This document shows, one piece after another, positions 13,734 to 57,054 of a DNA stretch of 64,000 bases; position 1 is the first letter of the stretch, and the number at the start of each line of letters is the position of its first letter. The stretch lies in contig WGMI01000030.1 of assembly GCA_016125155.1 (NCBI GenBank), positions 2,079 through 66,078 of the forward strand, in the 5' to 3' direction. The notes under the pieces are model-generated. The model worked only from the letters and a program-made list of their open reading frames with translations, had not been told where the DNA came from and did not search any database. The DNA is from a bacterium (GTDB lineage: Bacteria > Bacteroidota > Bacteroidia > Flavobacteriales > Schleiferiaceae). Position numbers and translations under genes: made by a program.

Positions 13734-13830
13734 CCATAACTGCGCTACGGCAGTGGCTCTTCAATTTAAAGCTCCAATCTGGCTAATATGAGGTTTATTG
13801 TGCAACAGTTACGTCTGTTATAGCCAGTGG
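13734..13830 (-). repeat. attC-like element C (distal end of cassette 2)
   Basis: The minus strand reads CTATAAC (13823..13817) ... GTTATGG (13740..13734). The two 7-mers can pair over their full length, allowing one G-U pair. The inner stem is weak. Confidence 0.35.
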
Positions 13831-13836
13831 ATTTTG

Positions 13837-14808
13837 TCATTCTTGGACTGTCGGCATATGTTTTTCCTTGCAATATTTTTCTACTTCTGTGTCGTTTGCA
13901 AAGTAGTCGTCACAAAAATCGTCAAGCTCTTTTTCTGCACCTGAAACATACCTTTCACTTGCTGTCACTATTTGTTCAGTTTTCTCAATGAACTTGTTGA
14001 AATTATCATTCATATTGCAGCGTTTGTCAATCGTTTTAAAATCCAAGTCATGATATGTTGCAGGAAAAAATATTTTGCTTTGGTAAGGATTTGAATTGAG
14101 TTCTATTATTCCAATTCCAAACGATTGATTTAGTCGTTCCATTTCTTCGTTCAAACTGTCGCTGAACTCAAAGGCTACCAAGTAACCATAGTTTGCCCAA
14201 CTAGAATTTGAAACTGCTTGAAAGAATGCTTTTTTAAGTTCGATGTCGCTGTTGATTTCCTTTTTCAATTCGTATGAACTCATTTTAAAGGTGTCAACAC
14301 GATTGATAGATTTTAAAAAGTTTTGGCTGGCTTTAGTCTGCCTGTTCAAAAACTTAATCCCAACCATATCTGGGTGTGTCCAAATTTAGTTGTTGTCCTT
14401 GCCGTTTGATTGTTCGTGAAAAATTGTCTTCGAGTAGGTGTCAGTATTTTTTAAGTAGCTAGTTAAAAGTTTATGTAAATCTCTTTCGTTAAAGGATTTT
14501 ACTTTGTCCATCTTTGTAACTTTAGTTATTTGTATTTCGGTTTCACCTGATAAAATGCCAATACCAATGTTTTGTTCGTTTTTTGTCAAGTAGTAGGAGT
14601 AAGTCCCACCTTCTTGTTTAATACGCTTGACTCTTGTGTCACCATTACGAATGAAGTCACCAAGACAAGCCGAAACTGTAGAGCCAGGAGTTTTACCTCC
14701 TCCAAAGTCAAAATACTTTTTAGTAAGAATGTGATTTAAAACTTCTGAGTAATTCGTCAATTTACCAATGTCTTCTAAACTTTTTATTACGGCTTCTTTT
14801 AATGTCAT
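13837..14808 (-). pseudogene. HARE-HTH / PD-(D/E)xK restriction-endonuclease-like protein interrupted by one in-frame TAA
   Basis: ORFs 14386..14808 and 13837..14367 are in the same frame. The junction reads ..SNGKDNN-TAA-IWTHPDMVGIKF... The N-terminus (LKEAVIKSLEDIG..YSEVLNHIL..GKTPGSTVSACL..D.RVKRI) looks like a HARE-type winged helix. ERDLHKLL..., then HPD...(about 30 aa)...YELKK fits a PD-ExK nuclease core. Confidence 0.7.
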
Positions 14809-14852
14809 TGTCTGTTCGTTTCAATATTACAATTCGGTCGTCCTACCATTCG

Positions 14853-14985
14853 CTTTAACGGTTTCGGGCTTTGCGTTCGGGCGGGTTTCGAGGCACAAAG
14901 TTTCAATTTACTACTAAAGTTCATTAGAAGCACAAAGTTCCAAGTTTGCACGTCAGCCCGCCTGACGCAAAACCCGTGTTAGCAC
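14853..14985 (-). repeat. attC-like element B between the two cassette ORFs
   Basis: The minus strand reads TGCTAAC (14985..14979), then a stem arm at 14977..14958 (CGGGTTTTGCGTCAGGCGGG). This pairs with 14885..14865 (CCCGCCCGAACGCAAAGCCCG) with bulged bases. Then comes a spacer and GTTAAAG (14859..14853). The loop carries two GCACAAAGTTYCAA direct repeats (14893..14906 and 14930..14943 on the + strand). Confidence 0.5.
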
Positions 14986-14991
14986 CAGTAT

Positions 14992-15936
14992 TTATTTTCT
15001 TTTGAATGTTTTTACAGCTTTTTTAATCTCTTCTATACTCTTATCGGACTCGTCATTTGTTGTTCCAAAAAGTATGTAATAAAGCTTGTCGCTGAATAAA
15101 ATTACTTGATAAATATTTTCTGTTTCATCCGTTTTTTTACTTTTCCCTTTTGCGTAAATCTCGTAACCTGAAATTCCGTCTATTATAGTAATTTCGTTTG
15201 TATATTCTATATTCTCTATTTCAATAGGTGTTTGTCTTAGTCTATTAATGCAGAACAGCTTTTTGTCTTCTGTCGTGATTTGAGAGAAAGACTTTGCAAC
15301 TACTAAGTTGGTTTTGTCGCTTGAAGTAGTTGGAACTTGTCCGTCAACGGAAAATGTTAAAGAGTTTGACATACTTTTTCCGAATTTCAATTTAGTTTCA
15401 GAAATGTCAATTGAGTAATCAAGAGCTTCAAATGGATTTATTTTTTTGTCAGCTTCGTAGAAAACAGTCAACATAGATTTTTTGATTTCATCACCAACCT
15501 TTTTTAAGTTTTCAGGATAAACACCATTTATCATTATGGTTTCAGTGTCTGTCCCAAATAAGAAAATACATTTTGTGTAAATGTTACCATAAGGATTTTG
15601 TGTTCCTGTAACGAAAATTGCTGGAAGTGAATTTATTGTCAGATTTTCAATTTTCTTTACTTCAACGCCTTTACTTAGCATATTTTCTTTTGTAATTCCT
15701 TTGGAAGTCTCAGAATAAGGTCAGTGAATGTCCAAAACCATTATACTTGAACCACTTTCTGTTTGTTGAAGTCCAAGAAAATTAAGTCCATCCGTAAATC
15801 CTTTGGGTGGAATTAGGCTAATTTTCGTCCCTTTAATATTTTTATGTTCATCAGACAGTTTGTTTTCAATTTTATTCTGTCCCCAAACGGTCAAAGAGAT
15901 AATAACTAAAAATGTTGTAAGAATTTGTTTTGTCAT
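14992..15936 (-). pseudogene. Secreted protein of unknown function interrupted by one in-frame TGA
   Basis: ORFs 15721..15936 (signal peptide MTKQILTTFLVIISLTVWGQ) and 14992..15681 share a frame. The junction reads ..IMVLDIH-TGA-PYSETSKGITKENMLSKGVEV.. with no other stop. No family recognised. Confidence 0.6.
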
Positions 15937-16322
15937 AATGTGTTGTTTTAATATTGGTGCTAACTAACTTACAGGCGCCATATCCTCACCTCATCTGCGC
16001 ATATGCCGTTGTACAGGCGTGATACCGTTGCGCTTTAAGGGCCCAAGATAATGGAAAGAACCTCAAAGGTCATGGAACAAACTCCGAAATTGCTCAAAAC
16101 CACGTGTACTGACCGGTTTGTCGTTTTCATAAGGAATCATGCGATTGGTGGTGCCCTTGCCACCCTGTGCCCACTGCCTAGCGCCCACGGCCTTGTGCGC
16201 TCGGTGTGATCCGGGAAAAGTATGTATTGGATTTCACCCAACTGTGCGGTACAGATCACCTAGGGCAGGGACGCATCCCATCCGCTCCGGATAAGCCATG
16301 CTGAACAGCCCCCCAGCATGGC

Positions 16323-16382
16323 GCGGAGCTGTGTATATTTCATCCAATTAAGGCGGAGCTGTGTATATTTCATCCAATTAAG
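16323..16382. repeat. Perfect 30-bp tandem duplication (2 copies)
   Basis: GCGGAGCTGTGTATATTTCATCCAATTAAG occurs at 16323..16352 and again, identically, at 16353..16382. This is about 50 bp upstream of the ATG at 16433. Confidence 0.9.
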
Positions 16383-16432
16383 AAAGATTCAATTCGAATT
16401 TCATGTTTCAGACTCGCCCAAAGCGGTAGATT

Positions 16433-17109
16433 GTGCTCGGATTCCTCCTCCTGCTTTCGGTCTCGGCCACGGCCTATTTCCGTGTCCAGCCCCAGCATTA
16501 CAAGCAAGCGCGTTACTGGCTGTACAGAACCGGTCAATCCGGCTGGAATCGATTGATGCGGGGCGTATCGTGGAAGACCGTCAAAACCGAAAAAGTCAAA
16601 GCGTCTCGATTTCGGAGCAATGCGTATACCTTGCACCGAGAATCGGCCAAAGCGCTTCAGCCGATGCTCATCCAAGGCGAAAAAGACCTCGAAACGCTGC
16701 GCAAGAAAGGCCGATTGGTTTCAGTGGAAAACGACCGTGGATATCGGGTGGCCTCAATGAACTTTGGAGAGCCACTGTTGACCCCGAGGCCAAGGCCCTG
16801 CTTCAACGACTGGGAACGTCCTTTTACGAAGAAAGCAGGGGGAGTTATTTTGTCGTAACCTCCATGACCCGAACGGTTTCAGACCAAAAGCGACTCACCC
16901 AAGTCAACGACAATGCCACCCGAAACCTGAGCACCCACAGCCACGGGGTTTCGTTCGACATTTCCTACACCCGGTTCAACGGCAACCGAGGACACAACCC
17001 CGAACTTCAACGAACCCTTGAACAAGTGCTCAGCGAACTGCAAAAAGAAGGTGCGCTGTATGCCATCTATGAGAAGAACGTTGCGTGTTTTCACGTAACG
17101 GTGCGGTGA
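16433..17109 (+). pseudogene. LAS/M15-type (VanY-like SxHxxGxxxD motif) peptidase-like membrane-anchored protein, frameshifted; possibly the DUF5715 family (name from memory)
   Basis: Frame of 16433 gives a TM segment then ..ENDRGYRVASMNFGEPLLTP. The other frame (C-terminal part of ORF 16318..17109) gives PEAKALLQRLGTSFYEESRGSYFVVTSMTRTVSDQKRL..NLSTHSHGVSFDISY. The two plausible halves join at a C-run at 16782..16785. Confidence 0.55.
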
Positions 17110-19952: not shown

Positions 19953-20789
19953 ATGAGCAAACACATCGTCGACGTGCATGGCATAGCCTGCGGGGCTCCC
20001 GGACTGTTTCTGATTTCGGGACCCTGTGTGATCGAAGAAGAGCACACCATGATGACCGTGGCCGAAAAGCTGGTCAAAATTTCGGAGCGCACGGGCGTTC
20101 CGGTCATCTACAAATCGTCTTTCCAAAAAGACAACCGCAGTTCGGTCAATTACTACCAAGGGCCCGGACTGGACGAAGGCCTCCGCATCCTCGAAAAAGT
20201 CAAGGCGGAAACCGGTTTGCCCCTGCTCTCCGACGTGCACTATCCCGATCAGGTAGCGGCCGCTGCCCAAGTGCTCGATGTCCTTCAAATTCCGGCTTAT
20301 CTGTGTATGCAAACCACGCTCGTGGTCGAAACAGCCAAGACCGGAGCTGTGGTCAACCTCAAGCACGGACAGTTTTTGGCACCCGAAAACATGATCAAGC
20401 CCGTGCAAAAAGTCGAATCGACGGGCAACCACAAAATCATCCTGACCGAAAGGGGCTACACCTTCGGGTACAACGATTTGGTGGTTGATCCCCGCTCTTT
20501 TCACCACCTGCAGCAAACGGGCTATCCGGTCGTATTCGACGTAACCCACTCGATTCGCAAATACGGCATCCCCAGCGCCGATCCTTCCGGAGGTGCGCGT
20601 CAATACCTCGGGGTGTTGGCGAGGGCCGCTGTCGGTGCCGGGGTCGATGGGCTGTTTATCGAAACCCACCCTTGCCCGAGCGAAGCCCTGTGCGACGCCG
20701 CCAGCCAAATGGACATCGACCACCTCGAGGCCTTTCTCAAACCCCTGATCGAGCTCCACGCCATCGAACGCGCGCATCGGCCTGACTGA
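19953..20789 (+). CDS. kdsA: 3-deoxy-8-phosphooctulonate (Kdo-8-P) synthase
   Basis: FLISGPCVIEEE..VPVIYKSSFQKDNRSS..LSDVH..LQIPAYLCMQT..VNLKHGQF..TERGYTFGYN..FDVTHS is the KdsA signature. Confidence 0.9.
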   Translation: MSKHIVDVHGIACGAPGLFLISGPCVIEEEHTMMTVAEKLVKISERTGVPVIYKSSFQKDNRSSVNYYQGPGLDEGLRILEKVKAETGLPLLSDVHYPDQVAAAAQVLDVLQIPAYLCMQTTLVVETAKTGAVVNLKHGQFLAPENMIKPVQKVESTGNHKIILTERGYTFGYNDLVVDPRSFHHLQQTGYPVVFDVTHSIRKYGIPSADPSGGARQYLGVLARAAVGAGVDGLFIETHPCPSEALCDAASQMDIDHLEAFLKPLIELHAIERAHRPD

Positions 20790-20840
20790 TTCGGGACTCG
20801 CTCTATCTTCGCACACTCACAACCTTCAGCCCTCCACACC

Positions 20841-21854
20841 ATGGAACTGTATTTGGACTCTGCGGACATCCGCGAAATCGAAGATGCCTTTCAACTCGGT
20901 TTTCTGGCCGGGCTCACCACCACCCCGACCTTCATGCATCGGCATGGGATTACCGACATTGACGGTACGATCCTGAAGTTGGCGAAAATCGTTCCCGTTT
21001 TGCAGATCGAAGCCTTGGGTCAAACCGCCGAAGAGATTGTCTCAGAGGCCTATCGTCAGGATGCCCTCGGTCTGGACCGCAAAAAGACGGTCTACAAAAT
21101 TCCCGTATCGCTCGAAGGGGTCAAAGCGTGTAAAAAGCTGGTGGACGAAGGCTTTATGGTCAACGTCCATTTGGTTTATACCCTGCAACAAGCCTATATG
21201 GCCATGGCGGCGGGCGCCACCTATGTATGCCCCTTGGTCGGTCGTCTTCAGGATCAGGGACAAGACGCCCTTCAACTCGTTGAGCAGTGCGTGGATGCCG
21301 TGGAGTACTATGGGTACGACACCAAAGTCATGTTCTCTTCGGTGCGCAATGTGGAGCACGTCCGCAACGCCATCAACCTCGGTGTCCACACCGTTACGGT
21401 GCCTTGGAAACTGATGAAACAGTTGACCGAAAACCACTTTACGAGCATTGGTACCCAGGAGTTTTACGAACACACCCGGTTGATGACGCTCAAGGTCCGC
21501 GATTTGCTCAACGGCAAAAATCCCATGGCTCAGATCGAGCACACCGTGGCCGAGGCCCTGCTCCGGATGACGGAAGGCGGGTTTGGAGCGGTGACCATCG
21601 TGGATGCGGCACACAAGCCGATCGGGATGTTTACCGACGGCGATCTTCGCCGCTTGATGAGCGCCGGAGACAACCAGTTGTTGGGCCGTTCGCTGGGCAC
21701 CCTCGACCTCAAAGTGCCCGTCTCGGTGGAGGCCGATGAACTCCTGTTCGAAGCCAATAAATTGTTCCGCGAACGCCAAATCGATACGCTGGTAGTGACT
21801 GAAGGCGGTAAGGTGATCGGCATGCTGGACATCCAGGAAATGATGCAGGGGTGA
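20841..21854 (+). CDS. Fusion protein: FSA/TalC-type class I aldolase (transaldolase family) N-domain plus a KdsD-like CBS pair
   Basis: N-terminus: MELYLDSADIREI.., LAGLTTTPTF, TVYKIPVS (position of the Schiff-base Lys in E. coli FSA, VVKVPVT, from memory), GATYVCPLVGRL. C-terminus of about 120 aa: ..AVTIVDAAHKPIGMFTDGDLRRLM...TLVVTEGGKVIGMLDIQEMM. This resembles the CBS pair of arabinose-5-phosphate isomerase KdsD (GIFTDGDLRR). No SIS domain is present. Confidence 0.75.
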   Translation: MELYLDSADIREIEDAFQLGFLAGLTTTPTFMHRHGITDIDGTILKLAKIVPVLQIEALGQTAEEIVSEAYRQDALGLDRKKTVYKIPVSLEGVKACKKLVDEGFMVNVHLVYTLQQAYMAMAAGATYVCPLVGRLQDQGQDALQLVEQCVDAVEYYGYDTKVMFSSVRNVEHVRNAINLGVHTVTVPWKLMKQLTENHFTSIGTQEFYEHTRLMTLKVRDLLNGKNPMAQIEHTVAEALLRMTEGGFGAVTIVDAAHKPIGMFTDGDLRRLMSAGDNQLLGRSLGTLDLKVPVSVEADELLFEANKLFRERQIDTLVVTEGGKVIGMLDIQEMMQG

Positions 21855-22528
21855 ACCTCGAAGCCCTGAACGCTTACGAACAGCGCGGTGCGCGTTTTCC
21901 ACGAGGCGTGGAACAGGTATCTGTCGCAGTTCGAAAAGTGCGGTTGCTGTTGTTCGATTGGGACGGGGTCTTCAACAACGGGTCCAAATCGGGGATGGAA
22001 GGCAGCGGCTTTAGCGAGGTCGATTCGCTGGGAACCAACTTGTTGCGCTATGGTCTCTACCTCCACCACGGAAGCCTGCCGAGGACTGCGATCCTGAGCG
22101 GGGCCCGCAACGAAACTGCCGAAGCCTTTGCAGCCAGAGAACATTTTGACGCAGTCTATACCCAATTCAAAGACAAATCGGAAGCCTTGAGCCATTTGTG
22201 TTCTCAGTGGCAACTCGAACCCGAACAAGTCGGCTTTTTCTTTGACGATGTTCTCGATCTGGCTCCCGCCACCCGCTGCGGACTGAGGGTGTTTCTCGGC
22301 TCGGGGCACAGCGCTTCGCTGGCTGATTTTGTCGAGACCCGCGAACTGGCCGATGTTGTACCTGCCCGGTCTGGGGGTCAGGGTGGGGTGAGGGAAAGTT
22401 GCGACCTCTTGCTCGAGGCACTCGGAGTCTATGCTGCCTGCGTAGAAGATCGAATGGCCTTGAACGAGCGCTACCTCCATTTTTGGAATTGGAGACAAAC
22501 CCTCGAAACCCAGGTACAGCGCGCCTGA
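21851..22528 (+). CDS. kdsC: Kdo-8-phosphate phosphatase-like HAD hydrolase
   Basis: VRLLLFDWDGVFNNG (DxDG HAD motif I), FFFDDVLDL, and GGQGGVRESCDLLLEALG (compare KdsC GGRGAVREVCDLLL, from memory). The GTG start overlaps the upstream stop. The N-terminus is about 40 aa longer than a typical KdsC, so the start is uncertain. Confidence 0.75.
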   Translation: MNLEALNAYEQRGARFPRGVEQVSVAVRKVRLLLFDWDGVFNNGSKSGMEGSGFSEVDSLGTNLLRYGLYLHHGSLPRTAILSGARNETAEAFAAREHFDAVYTQFKDKSEALSHLCSQWQLEPEQVGFFFDDVLDLAPATRCGLRVFLGSGHSASLADFVETRELADVVPARSGGQGGVRESCDLLLEALGVYAACVEDRMALNERYLHFWNWRQTLETQVQRA

Positions 22529-22535
22529 TCGAACC

Positions 22536-23012
22536 ATGGCTCAGCCCTCGCTCCACCCCACCCAAATCAGGGAACTCAAGGTGATTGGTTCCACCGACTG
22601 CCTCGATTTTCCCGACTTCGGGTTGGAAAACATCGATTGCAAAATCGATACCGGCGCCGGAATCTCTGCTCTGCATTGCCACAGTGTTCGCTTGGTCGAA
22701 AAAGACGGACAGCAATACGTCAGTTTCAAACTGCTCGACCCCAAACACCCCGCCTACCAAAAACGGGAATTCCGCAGCAGCGATTTTAAAGAGCGCAAAG
22801 TAAAAAGTTCGTTCGGGGCCTCGGAGTTCCGTTTTTCGATTCGAACCCGAATCACGGTGATGGGCAAGACCTATAAAGCCGAATTTACCCTGACCGACCG
22901 CAAGCGGATGAAATACCCTGTCTTGTTGGGCAAGCGCTTTTTGAAAAATCGTTTTTTGGTCGACGTAGCTCTAAAAAATCAAAGTTTTTTCTTGAAAAAC
23001 GAAGCCGAGTAA
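22536..23012 (+). CDS. Retropepsin-like aspartic peptidase / 'ATP-dependent zinc protease' family protein (RimB-like partner of RimK)
   Basis: CKIDTGAGISALH (DTGA active-site-like motif), YPVLLGKRFL, and its position directly upstream of rimK. Confidence 0.7.
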   Translation: MAQPSLHPTQIRELKVIGSTDCLDFPDFGLENIDCKIDTGAGISALHCHSVRLVEKDGQQYVSFKLLDPKHPAYQKREFRSSDFKERKVKSSFGASEFRFSIRTRITVMGKTYKAEFTLTDRKRMKYPVLLGKRFLKNRFLVDVALKNQSFFLKNEAE

Positions 23013-23150
23013 GCCGACTCACACCATGCATAATCTTATCTTTTCACACCGAGTGGTGCTTCGATGCGCATCGTTCATTCAAAACCGTTTCTCCGCGTCC
23101 GGAACCCTTTTTTAAACAGTTATTTTCGCCTGATGGGCGAATGAACCTCC

Positions 23151-24080
23151 ATGAAATCCAAACCTCTGGACATTCTGATTCTCTCCACCAACGCAGAATT
23201 GTATTCTACGAAGAGACTCAAAGAATCGGCCGAAAAAAGGGGGCATGTAGCCAAGGTGATGAACCACACCCGCTGTTATGCCCTGATGGAAACCGGACAC
23301 AACGAGATTTTCTTCAAAGACCACGCGGTCAGCAATGTCGACGCAGTCATTCCGCGGATCGGGGCGAGTGTTACGTTTTACGGGAGCTCGATCATTCGGC
23401 AATTCGAAATGAAAAAGGTCTTTACCACCACGGGTTCGCTCGCCTTGGTGCGTTCACGGGACAAACTGAGGGCCACCCAAATCCTGGCACGGCACGGCAT
23501 CGGCATTCCGAAAACCGTGTTTGCGCGCAACCCGGACGACGTAGACAGCCTGATTGCCCAAGTAGGTGGCGCACCGCTCATCGTCAAACTCCTCGAAGGC
23601 ACCCAGGGTTTGGGGGTGGTGCTGGCCGAAACCAAAAAGGCGGCGCGCAGCGTGATTGAGGCCTTTTATGGACTCAACGCCAATATTTTGGTGCAAGAGT
23701 TTATCGCAGAGGCCAACGGAGCCGATTTGCGGTGCATTGTGGTCGATGGTAAAGTGGTCGCTGCCTATCGCCGACAGGGATTGGAAGGAGAGTTTCGCTC
23801 CAACCTCCATCGGGGGGGCATCGGCAGTCCGGTGCGGCTCAAAAAAGCCGAGCGCGAAATGGCCATCAAAGCCACCAAGGCCCTTGGGCTTTCAATAGCG
23901 GGCGTCGATATGCTCCAGAGCAACCGGGGCCCCTTGATCCTCGAGGTCAATTCGTCTCCGGGACTCGAAGGAGTCGAAAAGGCCACGGGCATCGATGTGG
24001 CCGGGGCCATCATCGAGTATATAGAACGCCAATTGCTCTTGCCGCGCAAAAAGAGCGCGACCGATCAGGTAGGCGCATGA
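23151..24080 (+). CDS. rimK: Ribosomal protein S6 glutamate ligase / alpha-L-glutamate ligase, ATP-grasp
   Basis: [62 protein letters not shown], and [12 protein letters not shown]. Confidence 0.9.
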
Positions 24081-32450: not shown

Positions 32451-32659
32451 TTACATATTGCCTAACCTCAAGAAGACGCGCGCTCCGATGCTTTGGGAAT
32501 AAAAAGACTTCTGATTCTCTATTATTATCGAGTGTATCCCAAATAGGGAAATCCCATTTGATCACCCATTATAAAAATTCTCTAATTATCAGCATTTTAA
32601 GAAAAAACCTCGCTTTGGCACGATTCTCACTAATAGAGGGAAACACTCAACCTTCTGCC

Positions 32660-34576
32660 ATGAGCAAAATCAAGTATTCAATTTTCGCAGCCGGCCTGAT
32701 CGGTCTCGCTGTGGGGTCTTGCAAGCAAGATCTCGACTCTTCGATCCAAACGCCCGGTACATTCAATTATGAAACCAGCGGAACGGTTCGAGTTGCACTG
32801 AACGGCCAAGACTTTATGGCCGGTGCTGTATTTAGCATCTACACTGCCGCTCCCCAGGACGGTGGCAAGTTGATCGCTACAGCCATGCTCGACGAAAACG
32901 GTCGTTTCGAGAGCAACTTCCGCTTGGCCACCGCGGCTCAATCGGTCTACCTCGTGTCAAACTACATCGGTATGCCCGGCAACTTCCCCATCGCCATCAG
33001 CAATGGTGTTGCCAGCGTAGACTTCAACCGCACCGGTGCTGGTAAAAACGGAGGCAGCATCCAAGGTCCTTCGGCCAAGGTTGCCGCTACGGTCTACGAC
33101 TACTTCGGTACGTACAACGCTTTGGGTGTGCCTTCTTATTTGTTGGCTCCCGATGCCATCACTCCTTTGTTGTTGGCCCAAATCAATGCTACCCTTCCCG
33201 AATACGTAGACAACTCTGCTCTGGCCGTTCTTGGCAACAGCGACCTCGTTGTTACGCAGACCACGGAAGTGTTCTTTACGTGGGTTTTCGAAGGCGCCGG
33301 TTTCCAGAATGCCGTAGGTTTCTACACCTATAACACGGGTACTCCCCCCGTCAACGTTACCGACATCGACAGCGTTCAGATCATCATCCCAAACTCTTCG
33401 TTTTCGCCCCAGGGTGGGTTGGTTGCCGGTGACAAGATCAGCCTCGGTGTGATTCCCGCTGGAAAGTCGATCGGTTGGGTATTGTTCAAGTATGGTTGGA
33501 ACAGCGGTACGCAAACCGTAAACTTCAACAACCCCAAGGTGTACTCGAACCCCGACTTCAACGACGAAGCTACGCCCGCCAACCGTCGCCACGTGGTCAA
33601 CCTGTACCACGCTCCTCAGAACCTGATCTTGGTTGGTTTCGAAGACCAAGACCGCGACAACCCCGCTACCGACAACGACTTCAACGACCTGTTGTTCTAC
33701 ATTACGACCAGCGTACCCAACGGTTGCAACACCAGCGGTTTCCCCTTCGTGAACACCCAGGGTGGAACGGACAGCGACAACGACGGTGTCAACGACCAGT
33801 TCGACGCTTTCCCGAACGATCCCACCAAGGCCTTCATCTGCTACCATCCGTTTGACGGTGGTTTCAACAGCGTTGCTTTCGAAGATTTGTGGCCCGCTCA
33901 AGGCGACTACGACTTCAACGACCTCGTGATGGACATGAACTATGCCGCTTATATGGACGTGAACTTCGACGTGGTCGAGATCGACGTAACCGGCTATGTT
34001 CGTCATATCGGTGCCTCGTACAACAACGGTTATGGCATCCGCTGGCCCTTCCCTTACAGCGACGTTGCCGGCGTAACCGGTAGCCAATTGCTGCACGGCA
34101 TCGTTACGGTGAATGGAAATGGAACGGAAGCGGGTCAAACCGACGCCGTGAGCATGATGTTTGACGATGCTTTCGACCACGAAAACGACACCGTCAAGTT
34201 GAACATCTTGATGAGCAACCCTTATCCGCTCACCCAGCTGCAAGCCAACATGTGCGATCCCTTCCTCTTCGTAGACGGCAACCGCGGACGTGAGGTCCAC
34301 CTCGCCGGCAAGCAGCCTACCGATCTGGCCAATGTCGCCCTGTTCGGCACCGGTGACGACGCTACCGTACTCCCCGGCTTCACCTACAAGAATGGTCAGA
34401 ACATGCCTTGGGCCATCGAAATCAACCACAACTTCTCTGTGGTAGTCGAGAAAGTCCGCATCGAAGCTGCCTACTTGAAGTTCGCCGACTGGGCTCAGAG
34501 CAACGGTGCCTTGTTCCCCGATTGGTACTACAACCTGTCGCCCTTCTATCGCAACAACGCCAACCTGATCCCCTAA
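32660..34576 (+). CDS. LruC-domain lipoprotein (DUF4114-like N-region, Asp-rich Ca-binding-type repeat, LruC domain)
   Basis: Start set at MSKIKYSIFAAGLIGLAVGSC. VFFTWVFEGAGFQNAVGFYTY..GFEDQDRDNPATDNDFNDLLFYI; DSDNDGVNDQFDAFPNDP; VAFEDLWPAQGDYDFNDLVMDMNY (LruC-domain signature, from memory). Confidence 0.8.
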   Translation: MSKIKYSIFAAGLIGLAVGSCKQDLDSSIQTPGTFNYETSGTVRVALNGQDFMAGAVFSIYTAAPQDGGKLIATAMLDENGRFESNFRLATAAQSVYLVSNYIGMPGNFPIAISNGVASVDFNRTGAGKNGGSIQGPSAKVAATVYDYFGTYNALGVPSYLLAPDAITPLLLAQINATLPEYVDNSALAVLGNSDLVVTQTTEVFFTWVFEGAGFQNAVGFYTYNTGTPPVNVTDIDSVQIIIPNSSFSPQGGLVAGDKISLGVIPAGKSIGWVLFKYGWNSGTQTVNFNNPKVYSNPDFNDEATPANRRHVVNLYHAPQNLILVGFEDQDRDNPATDNDFNDLLFYITTSVPNGCNTSGFPFVNTQGGTDSDNDGVNDQFDAFPNDPTKAFICYHPFDGGFNSVAFEDLWPAQGDYDFNDLVMDMNYAAYMDVNFDVVEIDVTGYVRHIGASYNNGYGIRWPFPYSDVAGVTGSQLLHGIVTVNGNGTEAGQTDAVSMMFDDAFDHENDTVKLNILMSNPYPLTQLQANMCDPFLFVDGNRGREVHLAGKQPTDLANVALFGTGDDATVLPGFTYKNGQNMPWAIEINHNFSVVVEKVRIEAAYLKFADWAQSNGALFPDWYYNLSPFYRNNANLIP

Positions 34577-34965: not shown

Positions 34966-36888
34966 ATGAAAAAGAACCTCTTTTGGATGACGGGCTCCAT
35001 GCTGCTCGTCTTCTCGTGCAATCCGGACCCATCCAGTCCAACGCCCCCTTCGAACAAGCAATTCGACTATTCGACTTCCGAAGCGGTCTCGGTCGAAATC
35101 AGGACTTTCGATTTTCAGGCCGGAGCCTCCTTCTCCCTGTTCACCGATGCCCCGGAAATCGGAGGGGCTCTGCTGAGCCGGGGTCGCATCGAGGCGGATG
35201 GGCGATTTTCGACCACCCTTCGCCTCGGCATCGACCGGCCCTCGGTGTACTTGGTCAGTGACTATGTAGGCCTGCCAGGCGGGTTCGAACTTCCTGTGGT
35301 CAATGGTCGCATCCAATTTGACTATACCACCTTGGCCGGTCCGAGTCAAAGCGGCAAAAGCATGGGCAGCCCTCAGAAAATCGGATCCACGGTCTACGGG
35401 TATCACGGTCCGTACTCTTCTGATGGCAAACCCTTGGTTCTGGCGACGCCCGATGCCATCGATGCGAGCCTGTTGGCCGACATCAATGCCTCCTTGCCGG
35501 AACGCGATCCCGTCCCGGTCAAAAATCCCCAATATTTGGCCCAGGGCAATGACACCGAGATTCACCTCACCGAACCCTGCGACGTATGGGTGACTTGGCT
35601 GCACGAAGGGGCGGGTTACCGCAATGCCATCGGCTATTACGTCTACAATACCAACAACCCTCCGTCTAGTCCAGCCGACATCGATTCGATCAAAGTGATT
35701 TTGCCGAACGCCTCCAACGCGGGTTCGGGGGGACAATTGGTTCCGGGAGACAAGGTCTATCTCGGCGCCTACCCGACGGGCACTTCGGTGGGTTGGGTGC
35801 TGTTTCAAGATGCTTGGAACGGCAACAATCAAAGCGTCAATTTTGGAAAGACCAAGTACTTCTCGAACCCGGCTTTTAATCCAGATCCTGTTGGTAAAAA
35901 GCAACACAATGTTTTGCTCCATCACACCCAACGGGGTTTGATCCTGATCGGTTTTGAAGACCTCGATCGGGGCGGTTCGAGCGACGACGATTTCAACGAT
36001 GCCGTGTTCTACGTGACGGCAAACCCCATAGAAGCCATCGACACCGACAACATGCCCCCTGTAACCGACGGCGGTGGAAACGACTGCGACAACGACGGGG
36101 TCGACGACTCCAACGACCTGTATCCCTGCGATCCCGAAAAGGCCTTCGATCACTTCTATCCCTTTGAATCGGGCTTTTCGAGCGTGGCGTTCGAAGACCT
36201 GTGGCCCGCAGAAGGCGACTACGACTTCAATGATTTGGTGATGGGAATGAATTTCCGGTTCGTGACCAACGCCCGGAACGAAATTGTCGAAATAGATATG
36301 AAATTGCATGTCCGCCACATTGGCGCTGCTTATACCAACGGCTTTGGCATAGGCTTCCCCTTTCCGGCTACGGATGTTTTAAGCACCGTCGGCCCTGGGA
36401 ATCGAGGTACGATTACCTCGTTGGCCGCCAATGGTTTGGAAAACGGTCATACCAACGCGGTGTTCGTCGCCTTCGACAATGCTTTTGACCACGAAGGCGA
36501 TACGCTGCAAATCCTCATGACACTCCAGACCCCCTACAGCCTCGCGGCCCTCAACGCCTCAGGACTTGATCCCTTCCTGTTCGTCAATGGAGACCGCGGT
36601 CGCGAAGTGCACCTCAAAGGACGCCAGCCCAGCGCCTTGGCGAATCCCGCTCTGTTTGGCACCGGAAACGACGCCAGCCAGCCCGGAAGCTCCGACACTT
36701 ACCTCAATGCAGATGGTTTGCCCTGGGCGATCGAAATCAACCACAACTACCGGCCTCCGGTGGAAAAAGTGCGCATCGAAAACGCCTATTTGCGCTTCGA
36801 CGAATGGGCCGGATCGAATGGTGCACAGTACAAAGACTGGTTTTCCAATTCGGGTGGCGACTACCGGAACAACGCCAACCTACAGTAA
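34966..36888 (+). CDS. LruC-domain lipoprotein, paralog 2
   Basis: MKKNLFWMTGSMLLVFSC lipobox. Same architecture as 32660..34576: VWVTWLHEGAGYRNAIGYYVY..GFEDLDRGGSSDDDFNDAVFYV; DCDNDGVDDSNDLYPCDP; VAFEDLWPAEGDYDFNDLVMGMNF; C-terminal WAIEINHNY..EKVRIENAYLRFDEWA. Confidence 0.8.
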   Translation: MKKNLFWMTGSMLLVFSCNPDPSSPTPPSNKQFDYSTSEAVSVEIRTFDFQAGASFSLFTDAPEIGGALLSRGRIEADGRFSTTLRLGIDRPSVYLVSDYVGLPGGFELPVVNGRIQFDYTTLAGPSQSGKSMGSPQKIGSTVYGYHGPYSSDGKPLVLATPDAIDASLLADINASLPERDPVPVKNPQYLAQGNDTEIHLTEPCDVWVTWLHEGAGYRNAIGYYVYNTNNPPSSPADIDSIKVILPNASNAGSGGQLVPGDKVYLGAYPTGTSVGWVLFQDAWNGNNQSVNFGKTKYFSNPAFNPDPVGKKQHNVLLHHTQRGLILIGFEDLDRGGSSDDDFNDAVFYVTANPIEAIDTDNMPPVTDGGGNDCDNDGVDDSNDLYPCDPEKAFDHFYPFESGFSSVAFEDLWPAEGDYDFNDLVMGMNFRFVTNARNEIVEIDMKLHVRHIGAAYTNGFGIGFPFPATDVLSTVGPGNRGTITSLAANGLENGHTNAVFVAFDNAFDHEGDTLQILMTLQTPYSLAALNASGLDPFLFVNGDRGREVHLKGRQPSALANPALFGTGNDASQPGSSDTYLNADGLPWAIEINHNYRPPVEKVRIENAYLRFDEWAGSNGAQYKDWFSNSGGDYRNNANLQ

Positions 36889-47789: not shown

Positions 47790-50700
47790 TTATCGAATCA
47801 ATACCCTTCGGGAGGTTCGCGTGGATCCGGACTCGAGTTCCAAGGTGTAGACTCCTGGAGCCAGATGGGACACATCAAGGGCCTGTTCGATTTTGTCCCG
47901 GTTGTCCCATTGACCTTTCATACACGACTTTCCGAGGGCATCATACAACTCCCAACGAACTGCTGAAGCACTCGGACTGATCCAATGCATCCACAGGACG
48001 TCGTCGGCGGGCACAGGGTAGACCTCCACAGATGCCGAACCCGAACCCGGGTCGTCCGTGCCGATCGAGGCCAAGGTCGAAGTGAGCGTATCGGAATCTC
48101 CGCATTGGTTGTACACAATCAGGGTAACCTGCCAGAAAAAGCCCGGTACCGGATAGGTGTGCAGCGGATACCCCGAAGTGAAGTTGGTCCCTCCATCGCC
48201 GAAATACCAAGCATAGCTTGTCGCGCCCAGCGAGGTAGACGCATCGAACTGGACATCCATTCCACCCGGTCCAGACTGCACAACGGTAAATGTCCAAGCG
48301 GCTTTGGGTTTCACACAAACCACGATGGGAACCGAAATCGAATCCCGATAACCGCAGGCATTGACCACGACAAGCGAAACGTCATAATTGCCCGAGACGG
48401 TATAGGTATAATTGGGCTGTGCTACGGTATCTGTACTGCCATCTCCGAAATACCAGAGATAACTCGCGACATCTGGACCTGAAATGTTTCCGTCGAACGC
48501 AAAACTGGTTCCCGAGAAGGTATACGTAAAGTTGGCCGCAATGGTATCGCACACCTGCACGGCCTGGGTAATGCTGTCGGTAAATCCGCACGCATTGGAA
48601 ATGGCCAGAACGACGTTGTAGGTACCCGCATTGGGATAGGCGTAGGTAGGGTTCAACCCGCTGCCCGTGGCCCCGTTGCCATAGTACCAGGTATAAGACG
48701 TCGGAACACCGGTAGAAGGTGTCGCGTCAAACGCGGTGCTCAGGAAAGTGCTGGCATGCGTAAATCCAGCAGCAATCGGAGTACACACATCGACCATTTG
48801 GGTGAGGGTATCGAAACCGCCGCAGGCATTGCTGTTGATCAGGGTAATGGCATACGTTCCTTCTGCCCCAAAAGCAAAGTTGGCCGTGGGTTGGAAACTT
48901 CCGCCCAATCCTCCAAAATCCCAATCGAAGAAAGCTCCGGTCGAAGCGCTTCCATCTACCGAAATGGTCGTTCCCGAAAGCGTGTACGTAAACGAAGCCA
49001 CCGGGGGGGTACAGCTCTGGGTGGTGAAGGAAACCGGCCCCACCCATGTCGAACTATTTCCAGGACCACATTGGGTCTGAACATAGAACTGATACGTTGT
49101 ATTCTGATTCAATCCATTGATGGAGTAAGGACTCGTCACGTTGGGAATCAAAATACCCGTTCCCAACACAAAGCCTGTGGGACCAAACTGAATCGACGAG
49201 GTTCCTCCGGCTCCGGGGGTCCAGGATACCGTAGCGTTGTTCAATCCCGTGCTGACCACCGCCAAAGCCGTCGGGTCCGGGCAAGCCAGTTGGGGACAAT
49301 TGAGGGTGTCGCTATACAGAGCACCGGTGTTGATATTGGCTCCGGGAACCCGCTGATAGAGCAAGCCTCCACTGCCGTCGAACAACTGAATGCCGCATTC
49401 GTTCGACCAAACTCCGGCATTGACAAAACTCAAGGCCACGAAATCTCCATCGCAAAACTGGAGGGGGAAGGTCTGCAGGGTGCCCGCTGCCAGCGTATAG
49501 TTCGTCGGCGCTCCCCCATTTACTGCGATTTGCAATTGATGGAAATTTCCACCGGTACTAATCCAACCGTCTCCGAAATTGTCCGTCAACTGAAGGCTGA
49601 AGGAACAACTTGAAGCACAGTTGAGGGTTGTGGCCGAAATCGGGCCCAGCCAGGTGCTCACATCGCCTGCACCGCAACTGTCTCGGACGTATACATCGTA
49701 GGTCGTTGTGGCCATCAATCCTGAAATCGTGAAGGGATTGCTCGACGCATTCACCAAGGTTCCTGTACCGGGGGCAAATCCTGTCGGACCGTATTCGATC
49801 TGCCAATTCGATGCCCCACCACTCGTCCAACCAACGACGAGCGTAGAGTCCGTGCCTCCCACTAAAGCCAATGCGGTCGGCTCGTTGCACGAAGGGCCAT
49901 CGTGAATCAAAAGGTCGTCGATGGCGATATCGCCAAATTGGGTCGGCGCTGTCCCAGCCACAGAAATGAACCGCACTTTGATCGTCATATTGTCGTAGTC
50001 CGACAAATTCACTACGCGCTCAAACCAGGCATTGCCTTGGTCGCCTACGACGCTGTCGACGGCCAAATCCCATTGGGTTCCGTCAAAAACATCCATCCGG
50101 TATTTGCCAATGGTATTGCCATTCATGCTGACCCATACCCTCAGTTCGGGATACGTCAATGGGGTCAAATCTATGCTCGGCGTTTCGAGGGCGGCGGTAG
50201 CATTGGTCACACTTCCGCTGGATTCCGCATACACATAGTGCCCAGCGGCTGTTCCGAAGGTATGGTCGTTGGTCGGCCCTGTCCCCCCTGTTGGAACCGT
50301 TCCTTGTCCCCCGCCCCAATGGAATCCGGTGGCCGGGGTTCTCGTCCAACAAGGGTTGATGGTGCTTCCGACGTTGTTCGTGCCTGTCCCTTCGTCAAAA
50401 CCCGACTCGAAATTTTCAAAATAGGGCGTAAGCACAGTTCCACAGGCCGTACTGCCTTGAGTGGGGCCCTCCCACTGGGACACGTTTCCGACTCCGCAGC
50501 TGTCTCTCACGTAAAAATCATAGCTCTGAGAAGCACTCAATCCGTTGACCACAAAGGGATTCGATCCGGCGCTGACCAGCGTCCCTGTACCCGGTACAAA
50601 ACCTACAGGACCGTATTCCACCTGCCAGTTGCTCGCCCCCCCTGTGGTCCACGCCAAAGTGACACTGTTGGCCGTAGAAGTGGTAACGCTAAGGTTGGTC

Positions 50701-53700
50701 GGATACAAGCAAGAGGGCCCCTCAGCCAGCGAAAAATCGTCGATGGCAATGTCGCCCAACTGGGTCGGGGTGGTCCCGGTAAAGGCTGTGAGTCGGATTT
50801 TCACCGTTTGACCCACAAAGCCAGCAAGGATCTTTTGATATTCGATCCATTGGTTGCCTTGGTTGCCTACAATCGAATCGTAGCCGTTGGTCCACGTGGT
50901 GCCATTGTAGACATCAATCATCAATTTTCCGAGATTGGCACCATACATATGATACCAAAACATGAGCTCCGGATTGACCAATCCCGTCAGGTTGACGCTG
51001 GGCGACTCGAGCAGAGTGCTTTGACCCGGCGTGGTAAAGCTGGCTTCTGCATACACATAGTTTCCGAATCCGGTGGTGTGGTCAGCGGGAGGGCCCGTAT
51101 TGCCCGTGGGGGTGGTTCCCTGACCTCCGCCCCAGTGGTAGCCGGCGGTATCGCTGCGGAACCAACAAGCGTCAATGGTGCTGCCGAGGTTGTCGTTGCC
51201 CGTTCCCTCGAGGAAGTCCTGATCAAAATTCTCTGCAAAAGGCGCTGTGGCTACCCCACACAACGTTGATCCATTGACCGGACCGGCCCAAGCCGAAACT
51301 ACACCGATGCCACAGCTGTCGCGCACATAGAAATGATAGCTTGCGGATGGACTGAGTCCGGTTACCGTAAATGGATTCGCCGTGGCATTGACAAGCGTAC
51401 CCGTTCCCGGTGCAAAACCGGGAAATCCGTATTCAATTTGCCAGTTGGTCGCACCGCCGGTGGTCCAGCCTACCTGAATAGAAGTAGCGGAAATAGCCGT
51501 CGTTGTAAGTGCAGTCGGCGCGGGACAAGACGGCGCATTCGCTACTCCGATGTCATCGATGGCAATGTCTACTTGGTTGTTGGCACCTGCCAAACGACTG
51601 GCGACAAACCGTATTTGAATCGTGTCTCCAACATAGGACGAAAGTGCTTGGACCGATTCCAGCCAAGGCGCGTTCACAGAGGTCTGTTGTTGCCCGCTCA
51701 GTGTGGTGATATTGTTCCAAGAAGCCCCATTGTCGTTGGAAACTTCAACCGTCAAGGAACCAATTTGCGCCCCGTACATATGGTACCAGAAACGGAGCTC
51801 GGGTGCCGTCAATCCTACCAAACTAATCAGGGGTGAGGTCAACAAGGTGCTCGTGGCCGGGGTGTTCACCGTCTCGGTATAGGCATAGCTGCCGCTGCCC
51901 GTGGTGTGGTCTGAGGACGGCCCGGTATTGTTGGATGGCGTAACCCCTGTATTGCCCTTCCACCAATAGGGAGTTGTTTGGTTCCGATTCCAGCAAGGAT
52001 CGATGGTGCCCGCCCCGAAAGTGGTGCCCAGGGTCCATAAACCATTGTCAAAATTCTCGGTGTACGGCGTCGACACTACAGCACATAGGGTCGTAAAAGA
52101 AATCGGGCCCGTCCAAGTCGACGTATTGCCCACCCCGCAACTGTCGCGCACATAAAATTGATAGGCCGTATTGGGCGCTAGTCCAGTAATCAACTGCGGA
52201 CTCACCGCATTGGCAATCAACGTGCCCGATCCCAATGCGAAGCCCGTTGGACCATATTCAATCTGACTAAACGGGGTTCCCAAGGGGTCCCAAGAAACCG
52301 TGCTGTTGTTGGAGCCAACGCTGACGACTGTAGCATTAATGGGGGGAATGCAACTCAAGTTCTGCCCGCAATCGGCCGAATCGGTGTACAATACCGCAGG
52401 AGGTGTTCCACCGGGACTCAATTGGTAAACCGTTGTCCCAAAGGGATCGACCAGTGTAAGTCCACATTCGTTGACCCAAGCACCGCCATTGAAGAAATTG
52501 AGTTGAATGGGATCGTCTTGACAGAGATAAACCTGATAGCTGATGTTGTTTCCGGCTGGCAGGGTGAAAGGCTGTGGAAGACCTCCATTGACCACCAATT
52601 CTACACGGTGGAAGGCTCCGGTCCCAGACCATCCATCGCCAAAAGTGTCGGTCAGATTTAGGGTAAACAAACAACCGTTCGAACAACTGTAGGTCGTGGC
52701 GACCACCGGACCAATAGCAAAACTGACATCGTTCAGCCCGCAGCTATCGCGCACGTAAAACTCATAAGTCGTGGCCGGGGTCAAACCCGAAACGACCGCG
52801 GAAGTACCTGTGGCAGGAACAAAAGTGCCTGTGCCGGGGGCAAAGCCGGGCGGACCATACTCGATCAAGGCGTTGGGTGATCCGCCGCTGACCCACGCCA
52901 AGGTTACGCTGACATCGGTTTGGGCCGTGATGCTGAGCATCGAGGGGGCTGGGCAAGTCGGAGCATTGTCTACCCGAAAATCATCGATGGCGGCATCGCC
53001 AGTCCCTCCCAGTCGGGTTCCTGTGATCCGGAACTGAACCGTGTCGCCCGAATAGGCTGACAGGGGAACAATGGCTTCGAGCCAAGGTGCGGTAAGAGAC
53101 GCTTGTTGTTGACCGCTCAAGGTCCAAATGCTGATCCAACCAGAGCCATTGTTGGCTTCTACAGATACGGTTCCTGTCAAACCACCGTACATATGATACC
53201 AAAAGCGAAGTTCAGGTGTCGCCAAAGGAACCAAGCTAATCTGAGGGCTGAGCAGTTGGGCTGTAGTACCCGATGCGCCAAAAGTGGATTCCACATAAAC
53301 ATATTGTCCTGTTCCATTGGTATGATCGCCAGAAGGACCCGTGTTAATACTAGGAGTTTGTCCTGTACGGGTTCCCCAGAAGAATACACCGGCCGTTCCA
53401 CTGGGGGCGCCAGGGTTCCTCGACCAACAAGGATTGATGACATCGTTCAAGTTGTTGGTTCCGGTCCCTGTGACCCAATCCGACCCATCGAAGTTTTCAA
53501 AATAGGGCGCAATACTGGGTATACATGTGGTCACCAAGGTAACCGGGCCCACCCATGCACTGCTGCCACCGGTACAACTGTCTTTTACATAAACCTGATA
53601 GGTCGTTCCCGGAGACAGTCCAGACAGGGTTCCAGGGTTGGTCAATATAGGCACTTGAACACCACTGCCGGGGGCGAATCCGGGGGCCCCGTAGGAGAAA

Positions 53701-56828: not shown

Positions 56829-57054
56829 CGCAGCTAGGGGGGGGTTACAACCAAACGAAAATAGTGTCCCAACCAGAACTTTGGGTCTTCCGATATCGAT
56901 GGTCGCGTAAAAAGCGACTTTCAATGAGTTATGAAGCTTGTGATTCCCATGGGGCAATTCGTTTTAACAAACTAATTATGAGGCTCGTAAAGAACTCCTC
57001 GAGGCTTACCCAATGCGCTTTAACTTCGCCCCAATCCCTTTATTCTCCCGAGTT

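Follow-up and report, generated by a model that had tools for sequence, protein, structure and literature searches.

The window analysed here, a 64,000-nucleotide stretch of DNA from a member of the Schleiferiaceae (Flavobacteriales, Bacteroidota; assembly GCA_016125155.1, contig WGMI01000030.1, positions 2,079 to 66,078 of the forward strand), encodes a 337-residue protein in which a transaldolase-family domain with an altered active site is fused to a pair of CBS domains of the type carried by KdsD, the isomerase that forms D-arabinose-5-phosphate (A5P). Its gene lies between kdsA and a kdsC-like gene, in the KdsD position of an operon for the synthesis of 3-deoxy-D-manno-octulosonate (Kdo), and on sequence evidence we consider it probable that the protein supplies A5P, or whichever aldose KdsA employs, in place of KdsD. 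For this role taken together with the aldol-type mechanism proposed below, the chances appear evenly balanced. Kdo is an essential and near-universal part of the inner core of lipopolysaccharide, and its textbook pathway, consisting of KdsD, KdsA, KdsC and KdsB, has been treated as invariant and as an antibacterial target.

A check of the open reading frames (ORFs) places the three genes in a single same-strand cluster (19953-22528, + strand), with the following features:

19953..20789, + strand: kdsA, Kdo-8-phosphate synthase, 278 amino acids (NCBIfam equivalogs, Pfam DAHP_synth_1)
20841..21854, + strand: His-type transaldolase-like enzyme fused to a KdsD-type CBS pair, 337 amino acids (Pfam/NCBIfam, linkage, AF2 model)
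20841..21476, + strand: TAL_FSA domain (TIM-barrel, class I aldolase), residues 1-212 (PF00923, Foldseek, phmmer)
21096..21098, + strand: codon of Lys86, the predicted Schiff-base lysine (alignment to FSA Lys85 and transaldolase Lys86)
21168..21170, + strand: codon of His110, in place of the catalytic-water Thr (comparison of 114 His-type with 76 canonical sequences)
21228..21236, + strand: codons of Cys130-Pro131-Leu132 (residue alignment)
21477..21851, + strand: CBS pair, a homologue of the regulatory CBS module found in SIS-type A5P isomerases (alignment to 4O9K, 3K2V and 3FNA; kpsF, KdsD and GutQ models)
21851..22528, + strand: KdsC-like HAD phosphatase, probable Kdo-8-phosphate phosphatase, exact start uncertain (PDB matches, DxDG motif, overlap)

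The KdsC-like ORF begins with a GTG that overlaps the TGA stop codon of the fusion gene (GGGGTGA). An earlier note on this DNA had described the same three-gene Kdo cluster; all three ORFs were found at the positions and on the strand given there, and the motifs that it quoted for the 337-residue product are present.

The N-terminal part of this product (residues 3-202) matches the Pfam family TAL_FSA (PF00923) with an E value of 1.4e-34 and 120.2 bits against a cut-off of 27. In phmmer searches its closest solved relatives are small transaldolases of the TalC type (3R8R, E value 2.6e-33, followed by 1VPX, 1WX0 and 3S0C), and the fructose-6-phosphate aldolase (FSA) of E. coli (1L6W) is a more remote match (E value 3e-16). 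The AlphaFold (AF2) model of the protein has a pLDDT of 89.6, and its best Foldseek matches are 1VPX, 3S0C and 3R8R (TM ~0.9; rmsd 1.7-2.3 Å), i.e., the domain has the TIM-barrel fold of the small decameric transaldolases. The earlier note had called the domain FSA/TalC-like. The TalC likeness stands; the FSA assignment does not, as the protein fails the cut-off of the FSA equivalog TIGR00875 (151.8 against 245.95), has Leu132 and Glu57 in place of the FSA-defining Tyr131 and Gln59 and His110 in place of Thr109, and belongs to a separate clade, here termed His-type. It falls below every transaldolase and FSA equivalog cut-off in NCBIfam, and no Pfam or NCBIfam model separates the His-type clade.

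In the alignment, Lys86 falls on Lys85 of E. coli FSA, which forms the Schiff base, and all 48 family members have it without exception, as they have the other superfamily residues Asp6, Glu57, Asn108, Arg135, Ser167 and Arg169. A possible loss of catalytic residues was checked, and the lysine, which the earlier note had placed correctly, and the phosphate site are both kept. The same 48 sequences share four replacements, namely Asn28 to Thr, Thr110 to His, Ser/Ala130 to Cys and Phe/Tyr132 to Leu. In the comparison of 114 His-type with 76 canonical sequences, position 110 is His in all 114 and in none of the 76, position 132 is Leu in 100% and 0%, position 130 is Cys in 98% and 7%, and position 166 is Ser in about 91% and 7%, the canonical residue being mostly Ala; Thr28 is confined to the Bacteroidota branch of the clade. 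Cys130 stands where the Ser/Ala of the donor pocket is found, and Leu132 where transaldolase has Phe and FSA its acid/base Tyr. In FSA, the catalytic water is held by Gln59, Thr109 and Tyr131, and the donor pocket is shaped by Asp6, Asn28 and Ala129 (PMC13259622). On these residue roles, the changes in the His-type proteins affect two of the three water ligands and a single residue of the donor pocket, and leave imine formation and phosphate binding intact.

The small transaldolases of subfamily 4 from B. subtilis (3R8R), T. maritima (1VPX) and T. acidophilum (3S0C) are thus the best matches in sequence and fold (~32% identity), and share with the fusion Asp6, the Glu, the Schiff-base Lys, Asn108 and the Arg/Ser/Arg phosphate site. 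The fusion differs from them by the Thr110His, Ser130Cys and Phe132Leu replacements, by Ser for Ala at position 166 (~91%), by the added CBS pair and by linkage of its gene to kdsA rather than to pentose-phosphate genes; only the Glu of the canonical set Glu60/Thr110/Phe132/Ser130 is kept. E. coli FsaA (1L6W) has the same fold and the same Schiff-base Lys, but its Gln59, Tyr131, Leu107 and Ala129 correspond to Glu57, Leu132, Asn108 and Cys130 of the fusion.

The C-terminal part contains the CBS pair (Pfam, E value 7.6e-14), and over its last ~120 residues the protein matches the models for KpsF, KdsD and GutQ at their C-termini (E values 1.6e-15 to 1.2e-11), at model positions 153-267 (kpsF, TIGR00393) and 200-324 (KdsD, NF008141), which represent their CBS part only. 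The pair and the CBS modules of the A5P isomerases 4O9K (E value 2.2e-14), 3K2V from K. pneumoniae and 3FNA from E. coli align over their whole length and have the motif G-x-FTDGDLRR in common. These alignments make the pair a homologue of the one in genuine KdsD, as the earlier note had suggested. KdsD, GutQ and KpsF resemble the fusion in their place next to kdsC, in a homologous CBS pair with FTDGDLRR and in the presumed product; they differ in having a SIS domain, where the fusion has an unrelated TIM-barrel class I aldolase fold and presumably different chemistry. The KdsD-type CBS pair and the retained adjacency to kdsC fit an origin in which a His-type domain took the place of the SIS domain in an ancestral kdsD.

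No SIS domain was detected in the 337-residue protein by Pfam or NCBIfam, in agreement with the earlier note, and none is present in the 64-kb window. Four probes for SIS-type A5P isomerases, B. fragilis 3ETN among them, likewise found no such enzyme in the 2.0 Mb of DNA around His-type and related transaldolase-like genes at 174 loci.

The upstream neighbour is a clear KdsA, with scores above the NCBIfam equivalog cut-offs (NF003543, 342.9 against 242; TIGR01362, 330 against 314) and a match to Pfam DAHP_synth_1 (E value 1.5e-62). It contains a GPC (Gly-Pro-Cys) motif at the position where metal-dependent, Aquifex-type Kdo-8-phosphate synthases have the metal-binding Cys and the E. coli enzyme has Asn; the motif suggests that KdsA of the window belongs to the metal-dependent class. 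The KdsC-like protein reaches 61 bits with the NCBIfam KdsC model, whose cut-off is 208. Its six best matches among solved structures are all Kdo-8-phosphate phosphatases of the KdsC/YrbI type (3N07, E value 6e-14, 3MN1 and 2R8E among them) and the DxDG motif is retained, which makes a Kdo-8-phosphate phosphatase the probable product of 21851-22528.

Among genomes sampled at one per GTDB species, the fusion was found at no fewer than 589 loci, mostly in Bacteroidota, and gene neighbourhoods were counted on the best 80 of these. The 80 represent Flavobacteriales, Cytophagales, Bacteroidales, Saprospiraceae and Ignavibacteriales, with Thermonema rossianum and Thermoflexibacter ruber among them as isolates. 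The 120 best matches of the protein search share the fusion architecture (67-100% identity), and the named organisms are almost all Bacteroidota. The gene that immediately precedes the fusion is a same-strand kdsA in 63 of the 80 genomes, and the one that immediately follows it is KdsC-like, likewise in 63 of 80; the other genes near the cluster in the window (argS, rsmE, rimK, the Zn-protease gene and the arginase gene) recur at no more than two of the 80 loci. The kdsA-fusion-kdsC arrangement is therefore not due to chance, and the middle gene occupies the KdsD slot, as the earlier note had held. At loci with neither Kdo gene, the neighbours are unrelated and heterogeneous. Median identity is 67% for the fusion, 71% for KdsA and 39% for the KdsC-like protein, i.e., the fusion evolves as slowly as KdsA. 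The fusion was not found in a plasmid collection, which yielded only ordinary FSA or transaldolase genes. Four Flavobacteriales genomes encode a canonical small transaldolase (TTNP / N-C-T / SPFxGR) about 7 kb from the fusion (L058, 8639-9277; L064, 13262-13900; L077, 17572-18228; L078, 10279-10944), which identifies the fusion as an additional, specialised paralogue.

An exhaustive protein search over 1.84 billion cluster representatives revealed three kinds of relative: His-type fusions down to 29% identity, stand-alone His-type proteins, and four clusters of fusions without the Schiff-base lysine. The first two share the signature D6/E57/K86/N108/H110/C130/L132/R135/S167/R169; the stand-alone proteins are ~215 residues long and have no CBS pair. 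Kdo genes accompany even remote members. One fusion of 37% identity (P0136) is found on four contigs in the order kdsB-kdsA-X-kdsC with overlapping genes, two divergent fusions (P0140 and P0142) have KdsA-like and KdsB-like genes as neighbours within glycan clusters, and the start of a stand-alone gene (P0132) overlaps the kdsA stop codon.

A metagenome scan seeded with four stand-alone members recovered 80 further loci (39-62% identity), all 80 of which carry the His-type signature. A KdsA-type gene is adjacent in 67, corresponding to ~96% of the loci with enough flank, and 10 of the 13 others have less than 450 bp of upstream flank. Both orders of the His-type and KdsA-type genes occur, so that the adjacency has been kept through rearrangements. 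Unbiased clustering of the neighbours gave KdsA at 55 loci, CTP_transf_3 cytidylyltransferases of the KdsB type in two clusters (22 and 12 loci), a KdsC-type HAD phosphatase at 17 and the Kdo transferase (waaA) at 8; sugar-modifying enzymes, namely GFO/IDH/MocA oxidoreductases, radical SAM/SPASM enzymes and methyltransferases, were also recurrent. The survey of linkage to kdsA and kdsC that the earlier note had called for thus reveals a very strong association across great evolutionary distance. Its idea of a one-off domain swap does not hold, since the same catalytic clade also occurs without CBS domains and still adjoins kdsA, and the stand-alone genes indicate that the clade pre-exists the fusion or is independent of it.

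Several divergent members raise points of their own. At L090 (P0140), L091 (P0142) and several of the loci L095-L174, a His-type gene and a KdsA-like synthase gene share a polysaccharide cluster with genes for radical SAM/SPASM enzymes, for methyltransferases of the TylF type and others, and for GFO/IDH/MocA oxidoreductases, FrhB-like proteins, glycosyltransferases and Wzy; these contexts hint at modified Kdo-like ulosonic acids. At L128 (4719-5411), a stand-alone His-type protein adjoins a KdsA-like gene. Its 90% cluster contains RLG43170.1, labelled as from a metagenome-assembled genome of a Thermoproteota/Korarchaeota archaeon, which may reflect either an archaeal Kdo-like pathway or a binning artefact.

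The Lys-less fusions (P0126, P0127, P0129 and P0152) form a sister clade that has lost Lys86 (Arg or Ser instead), Asp6 and the phosphate arginines and keeps the KdsD-type CBS motifs. In the three clusters whose gene context was examined (P0126, P0127 and P0129), it directly follows a Peptidase_M61 gene, and Kdo genes are never close by (L081, 1434-2438; L083, 2862-3872; L084, 2780-3790). This family is probably a pseudoenzyme or a regulator with a different role.

Supply of A5P is the function best supported for the His-type proteins, because kdsA, kdsB, kdsC and waaA recur beside their genes while the A5P step alone is never represented, and because the fusion occupies the KdsD slot and carries the CBS module of KdsD. 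Together with the homology of this module to that of genuine KdsD, this makes it very probable that the enzyme supplies A5P in KdsD's place. The sequences themselves establish the domain anatomy, the conserved residues, the linkage within operons and the homology of the CBS pair, whereas A5P as the product, the roles of individual residues and regulation through the CBS pair are all inferred.

The catalytic domain would act as a class I (Schiff-base) enzyme of the small-transaldolase/FSA fold. An imine of Lys86 at C1 of a pentose phosphate would put the 5-phosphate into the Arg135/Ser167/Arg169 site, just as transaldolase places the 6-phosphate of fructose-6-phosphate bound through C2. The key step would be formation of the C2-C3 bond by aldol addition, the Lys86-bound enamine of glycolaldehyde attacking D-glyceraldehyde-3-phosphate to give A5P, which KdsA would then condense with phosphoenolpyruvate. 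With the Thr and the Phe/Tyr gone (His110, Leu132), His110 may serve as the new acid/base, and the change of Ser to Cys130 would fit a donor without the C1 hydroxymethyl group of dihydroxyacetone. The two-carbon unit might be free glycolaldehyde, the protein then being a true aldolase like FsaA, or might be taken from ribose-5-phosphate (R5P) and re-added without release, in which case the net reaction would be a 2-epimerisation of R5P to A5P. The CBS pair, inherited from KdsD, may confer ligand-dependent control on the first committed step. Its ligand would probably be a nucleotide or CMP-Kdo, the latter as a feedback ligand; the KdsD CBS-pair structure 4O9K reportedly contains bound CMP-Kdo.

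There is precedent for the chemistry. E. coli FsaA forms A5P from glycolaldehyde and glyceraldehyde-3-phosphate, and the F178Y variant of TalB forms both A5P and R5P (PMC9947464). The glycolaldehyde reaction put forward in the earlier note is only one candidate; no source of glycolaldehyde is co-located, and conversion of R5P to A5P is as good a candidate. In FsaA the formation of A5P is a promiscuous or engineered activity, which has no known part in Kdo synthesis. Recruitment of a small transaldolase into the gene cluster of a specialised sugar pathway also has a parallel in the sulfofructose transaldolase BmSF-TAL (8BC3/8C4I; PMC7491151), which differs from the fusion in being a weak match to it (E value 6e-20), in its substrate and in serving a catabolic rather than a biosynthetic pathway.

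Several observations weigh against the proposed A5P supply by aldol addition. A glycolaldehyde-producing partner was never found among the clustered neighbours, and free glycolaldehyde is not known as an abundant metabolite. The proton shuttle of FSA, Tyr131, is absent, so that turnover as an aldolase would need His110. Adjacent Kdo genes are missing at ~15-20% of the genome loci, and the search that found no SIS-type KdsD covered the 6-10 kb flanks of the loci. Finally, the Lys-less clade shows that the scaffold can serve non-catalytic or different roles, although this clade has no linkage to Kdo genes.

The alternative that survives best leaves the A5P role in place and changes the chemistry, in that a central pentose phosphate would be converted directly, most plausibly R5P to A5P, which are C2 epimers. 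The reaction might proceed through a C1 aldimine/enamine with protonation from two sides, His110 providing the second base, or by retro-aldol cleavage and re-addition, with no free glycolaldehyde in either case. As the operons hold only kdsA, kdsB, kdsC and waaA besides the fusion or His-type gene, and no source of glycolaldehyde, the substrate should be a central metabolite, as it is for KdsD. The products of TalB-F178Y indicate that a transaldolase site can hold both C2 epimers, and the changes typical of the clade add an ionisable His beside Lys86/Glu57 and remove the aromatic residue at position 132. On the other hand, inversion at the donor carbon is stereochemically demanding, no natural epimerase of this fold is known, and a literature search found none; a 2-epimerase for R5P and A5P would be a reaction class not known for the transaldolase fold. 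We regard this route as possible but somewhat doubtful. A Schiff-base isomerase acting on ribulose-5-phosphate was rejected on chemical reasoning, for the reaction would end in a dead-end Heyns/Amadori adduct, and of the pentose phosphate routes only that from R5P is therefore plausible.

It is unlikely that the protein is an ordinary CBS-regulated transaldolase or fructose-6-phosphate aldolase that tunes pentose-phosphate flux toward ribulose-5-phosphate, with A5P coming from a SIS-type KdsD elsewhere. Membership in PF00923, retention of the Lys, Asp, Glu and phosphate site, the database names 'transaldolase' and 'fructose-6-phosphate aldolase', and the fact that absence of kdsD was judged on flanks would all agree with such a role. 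However, two water ligands and a donor-pocket residue are replaced in 98-100% of members and in 0-7% of canonical proteins, the scores lie below every transaldolase/FSA equivalog cut-off, a canonical transaldolase is encoded nearby at four loci, and the genes are never linked to those of the pentose-phosphate pathway, their linkage to kdsA reaching ~96% of testable divergent loci. A housekeeping transaldolase was rejected for the canonical paralogues nearby and the altered active site.

Less probable still is that the protein makes a different sugar phosphate for KdsA-family synthases, e.g., the precursor of a modified Kdo-like ulosonic acid, or acts on Kdo-8-phosphate itself. In favour of this reading, the polysaccharide clusters that house some divergent members also encode radical SAM/SPASM enzymes, methyltransferases and GFO/IDH/MocA oxidoreductases. 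Nevertheless, the partner in the window and in most Bacteroidota is an equivalog-level KdsA, the gene sets are minimal (kdsA-X-kdsC or kdsB-kdsA-X-kdsC) with a Kdo transferase near some loci, and exactly one step of the canonical pathway is unfilled. That the protein is a non-catalytic partner, sensing a Kdo-pathway metabolite through its CBS pair and modulating KdsA, has very little probability: the sister clade that lacks Lys86, Asp6 and the phosphate arginines and keeps the CBS motifs would offer a model for it, but the genes of that clade accompany Peptidase_M61 rather than Kdo genes, all catalytic and phosphate-binding residues are invariant in the Kdo-linked clade, and stand-alone forms without CBS domains are still linked to kdsA.

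The remainder of the window resembles an ordinary Bacteroidota chromosome, with a giant protein bearing a type IX secretion system (T9SS) tail, GSIII, DUF4835 and housekeeping genes. Rfam and tRNA scans found no RNA genes in the 64 kb, and a promoter and terminator scan of the operon, which does not cover Bacteroidota promoters, gave counts equal to those of shuffled sequence. Genes for a Zn_protease (PF05618) and a RimK ATP-grasp protein follow directly after the KdsC-like gene on the same strand (22536-24080); this pair accompanies the Kdo cluster in one of the 80 genomes, i.e., it is not conserved. A 2.2-kb island of low GC content (13800-16000; 0.30-0.39 against ~0.55) contains three minus-strand ORFs (13837-14367, 14386-14808 and 14992-15681) with no Pfam or PADLOC match and may be a horizontally acquired insertion. 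Just to its right lies a perfect tandem duplication of 30 bp (two copies, 16323-16382), which falls inside the mechanically called start of ORF 16318-17109 (DUF5715). Tandem paralogues at 32558-34576 and 34966-36888 both contain DUF4114 and DUF4842, and the minus-strand gene at 47790-56957 encodes a protein of 3055 residues that combines seven MAM domains with fn3 and PKD repeats and has a T9SS sorting domain at its C-terminus. This protein marks the organism as a member of the Bacteroidota.

Neither the fusion nor the His-type clade was found described in the full-text literature, with subscription-only papers outside the search, and the fusion accordingly appears uncharacterised, as the earlier note had believed. 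The proteins are named in databases as 'transaldolase', 'FSA' or 'CBS domain-containing protein'. In IMG, a 104-residue fragment (P0271) of one fusion cluster (P0128), presumably its CBS part if judged by name, is called 'arabinose-5-phosphate isomerase'; automated annotation can in this way hide the gap left by a missing KdsD.

We consider it somewhat better than an even bet that the His-type clade as a whole is the natural A5P-forming enzyme of Kdo synthesis in most non-Bacteroidales Bacteroidota and many other uncultured lineages, with or without a KdsD-derived CBS sensor, which has displaced KdsD non-orthologously and employs chemistry new to a biosynthetic pathway, either as a physiological aldolase of glycolaldehyde and glyceraldehyde-3-phosphate or as a Schiff-base R5P/A5P 2-epimerase. 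If A5P supply is indeed its function, an unrelated fold working by different chemistry would carry out a core step of envelope synthesis in a major bacterial phylum as well as outside it. The names 'transaldolase', 'fructose-6-phosphate aldolase' and 'CBS domain-containing protein' would be wrong for hundreds to thousands of genes, and metabolic models of Bacteroidota would contain a spurious extra transaldolase together with a masked gap. His would represent a third natural acid/base solution in these aldolases, beside the Glu-water of transaldolase and the Tyr of FSA, and a natural A5P catalyst would be of use to synthetic glycolaldehyde-assimilation pathways, which at present depend on the promiscuity of FsaA. 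The presence of KdsD's CBS pair on another catalytic domain would be a clean natural experiment on what this module senses. In toto, a transaldolase-family enzyme with a rebuilt active site in the KdsD slot points to a previously unrecognised way of feeding an essential cell-envelope pathway.

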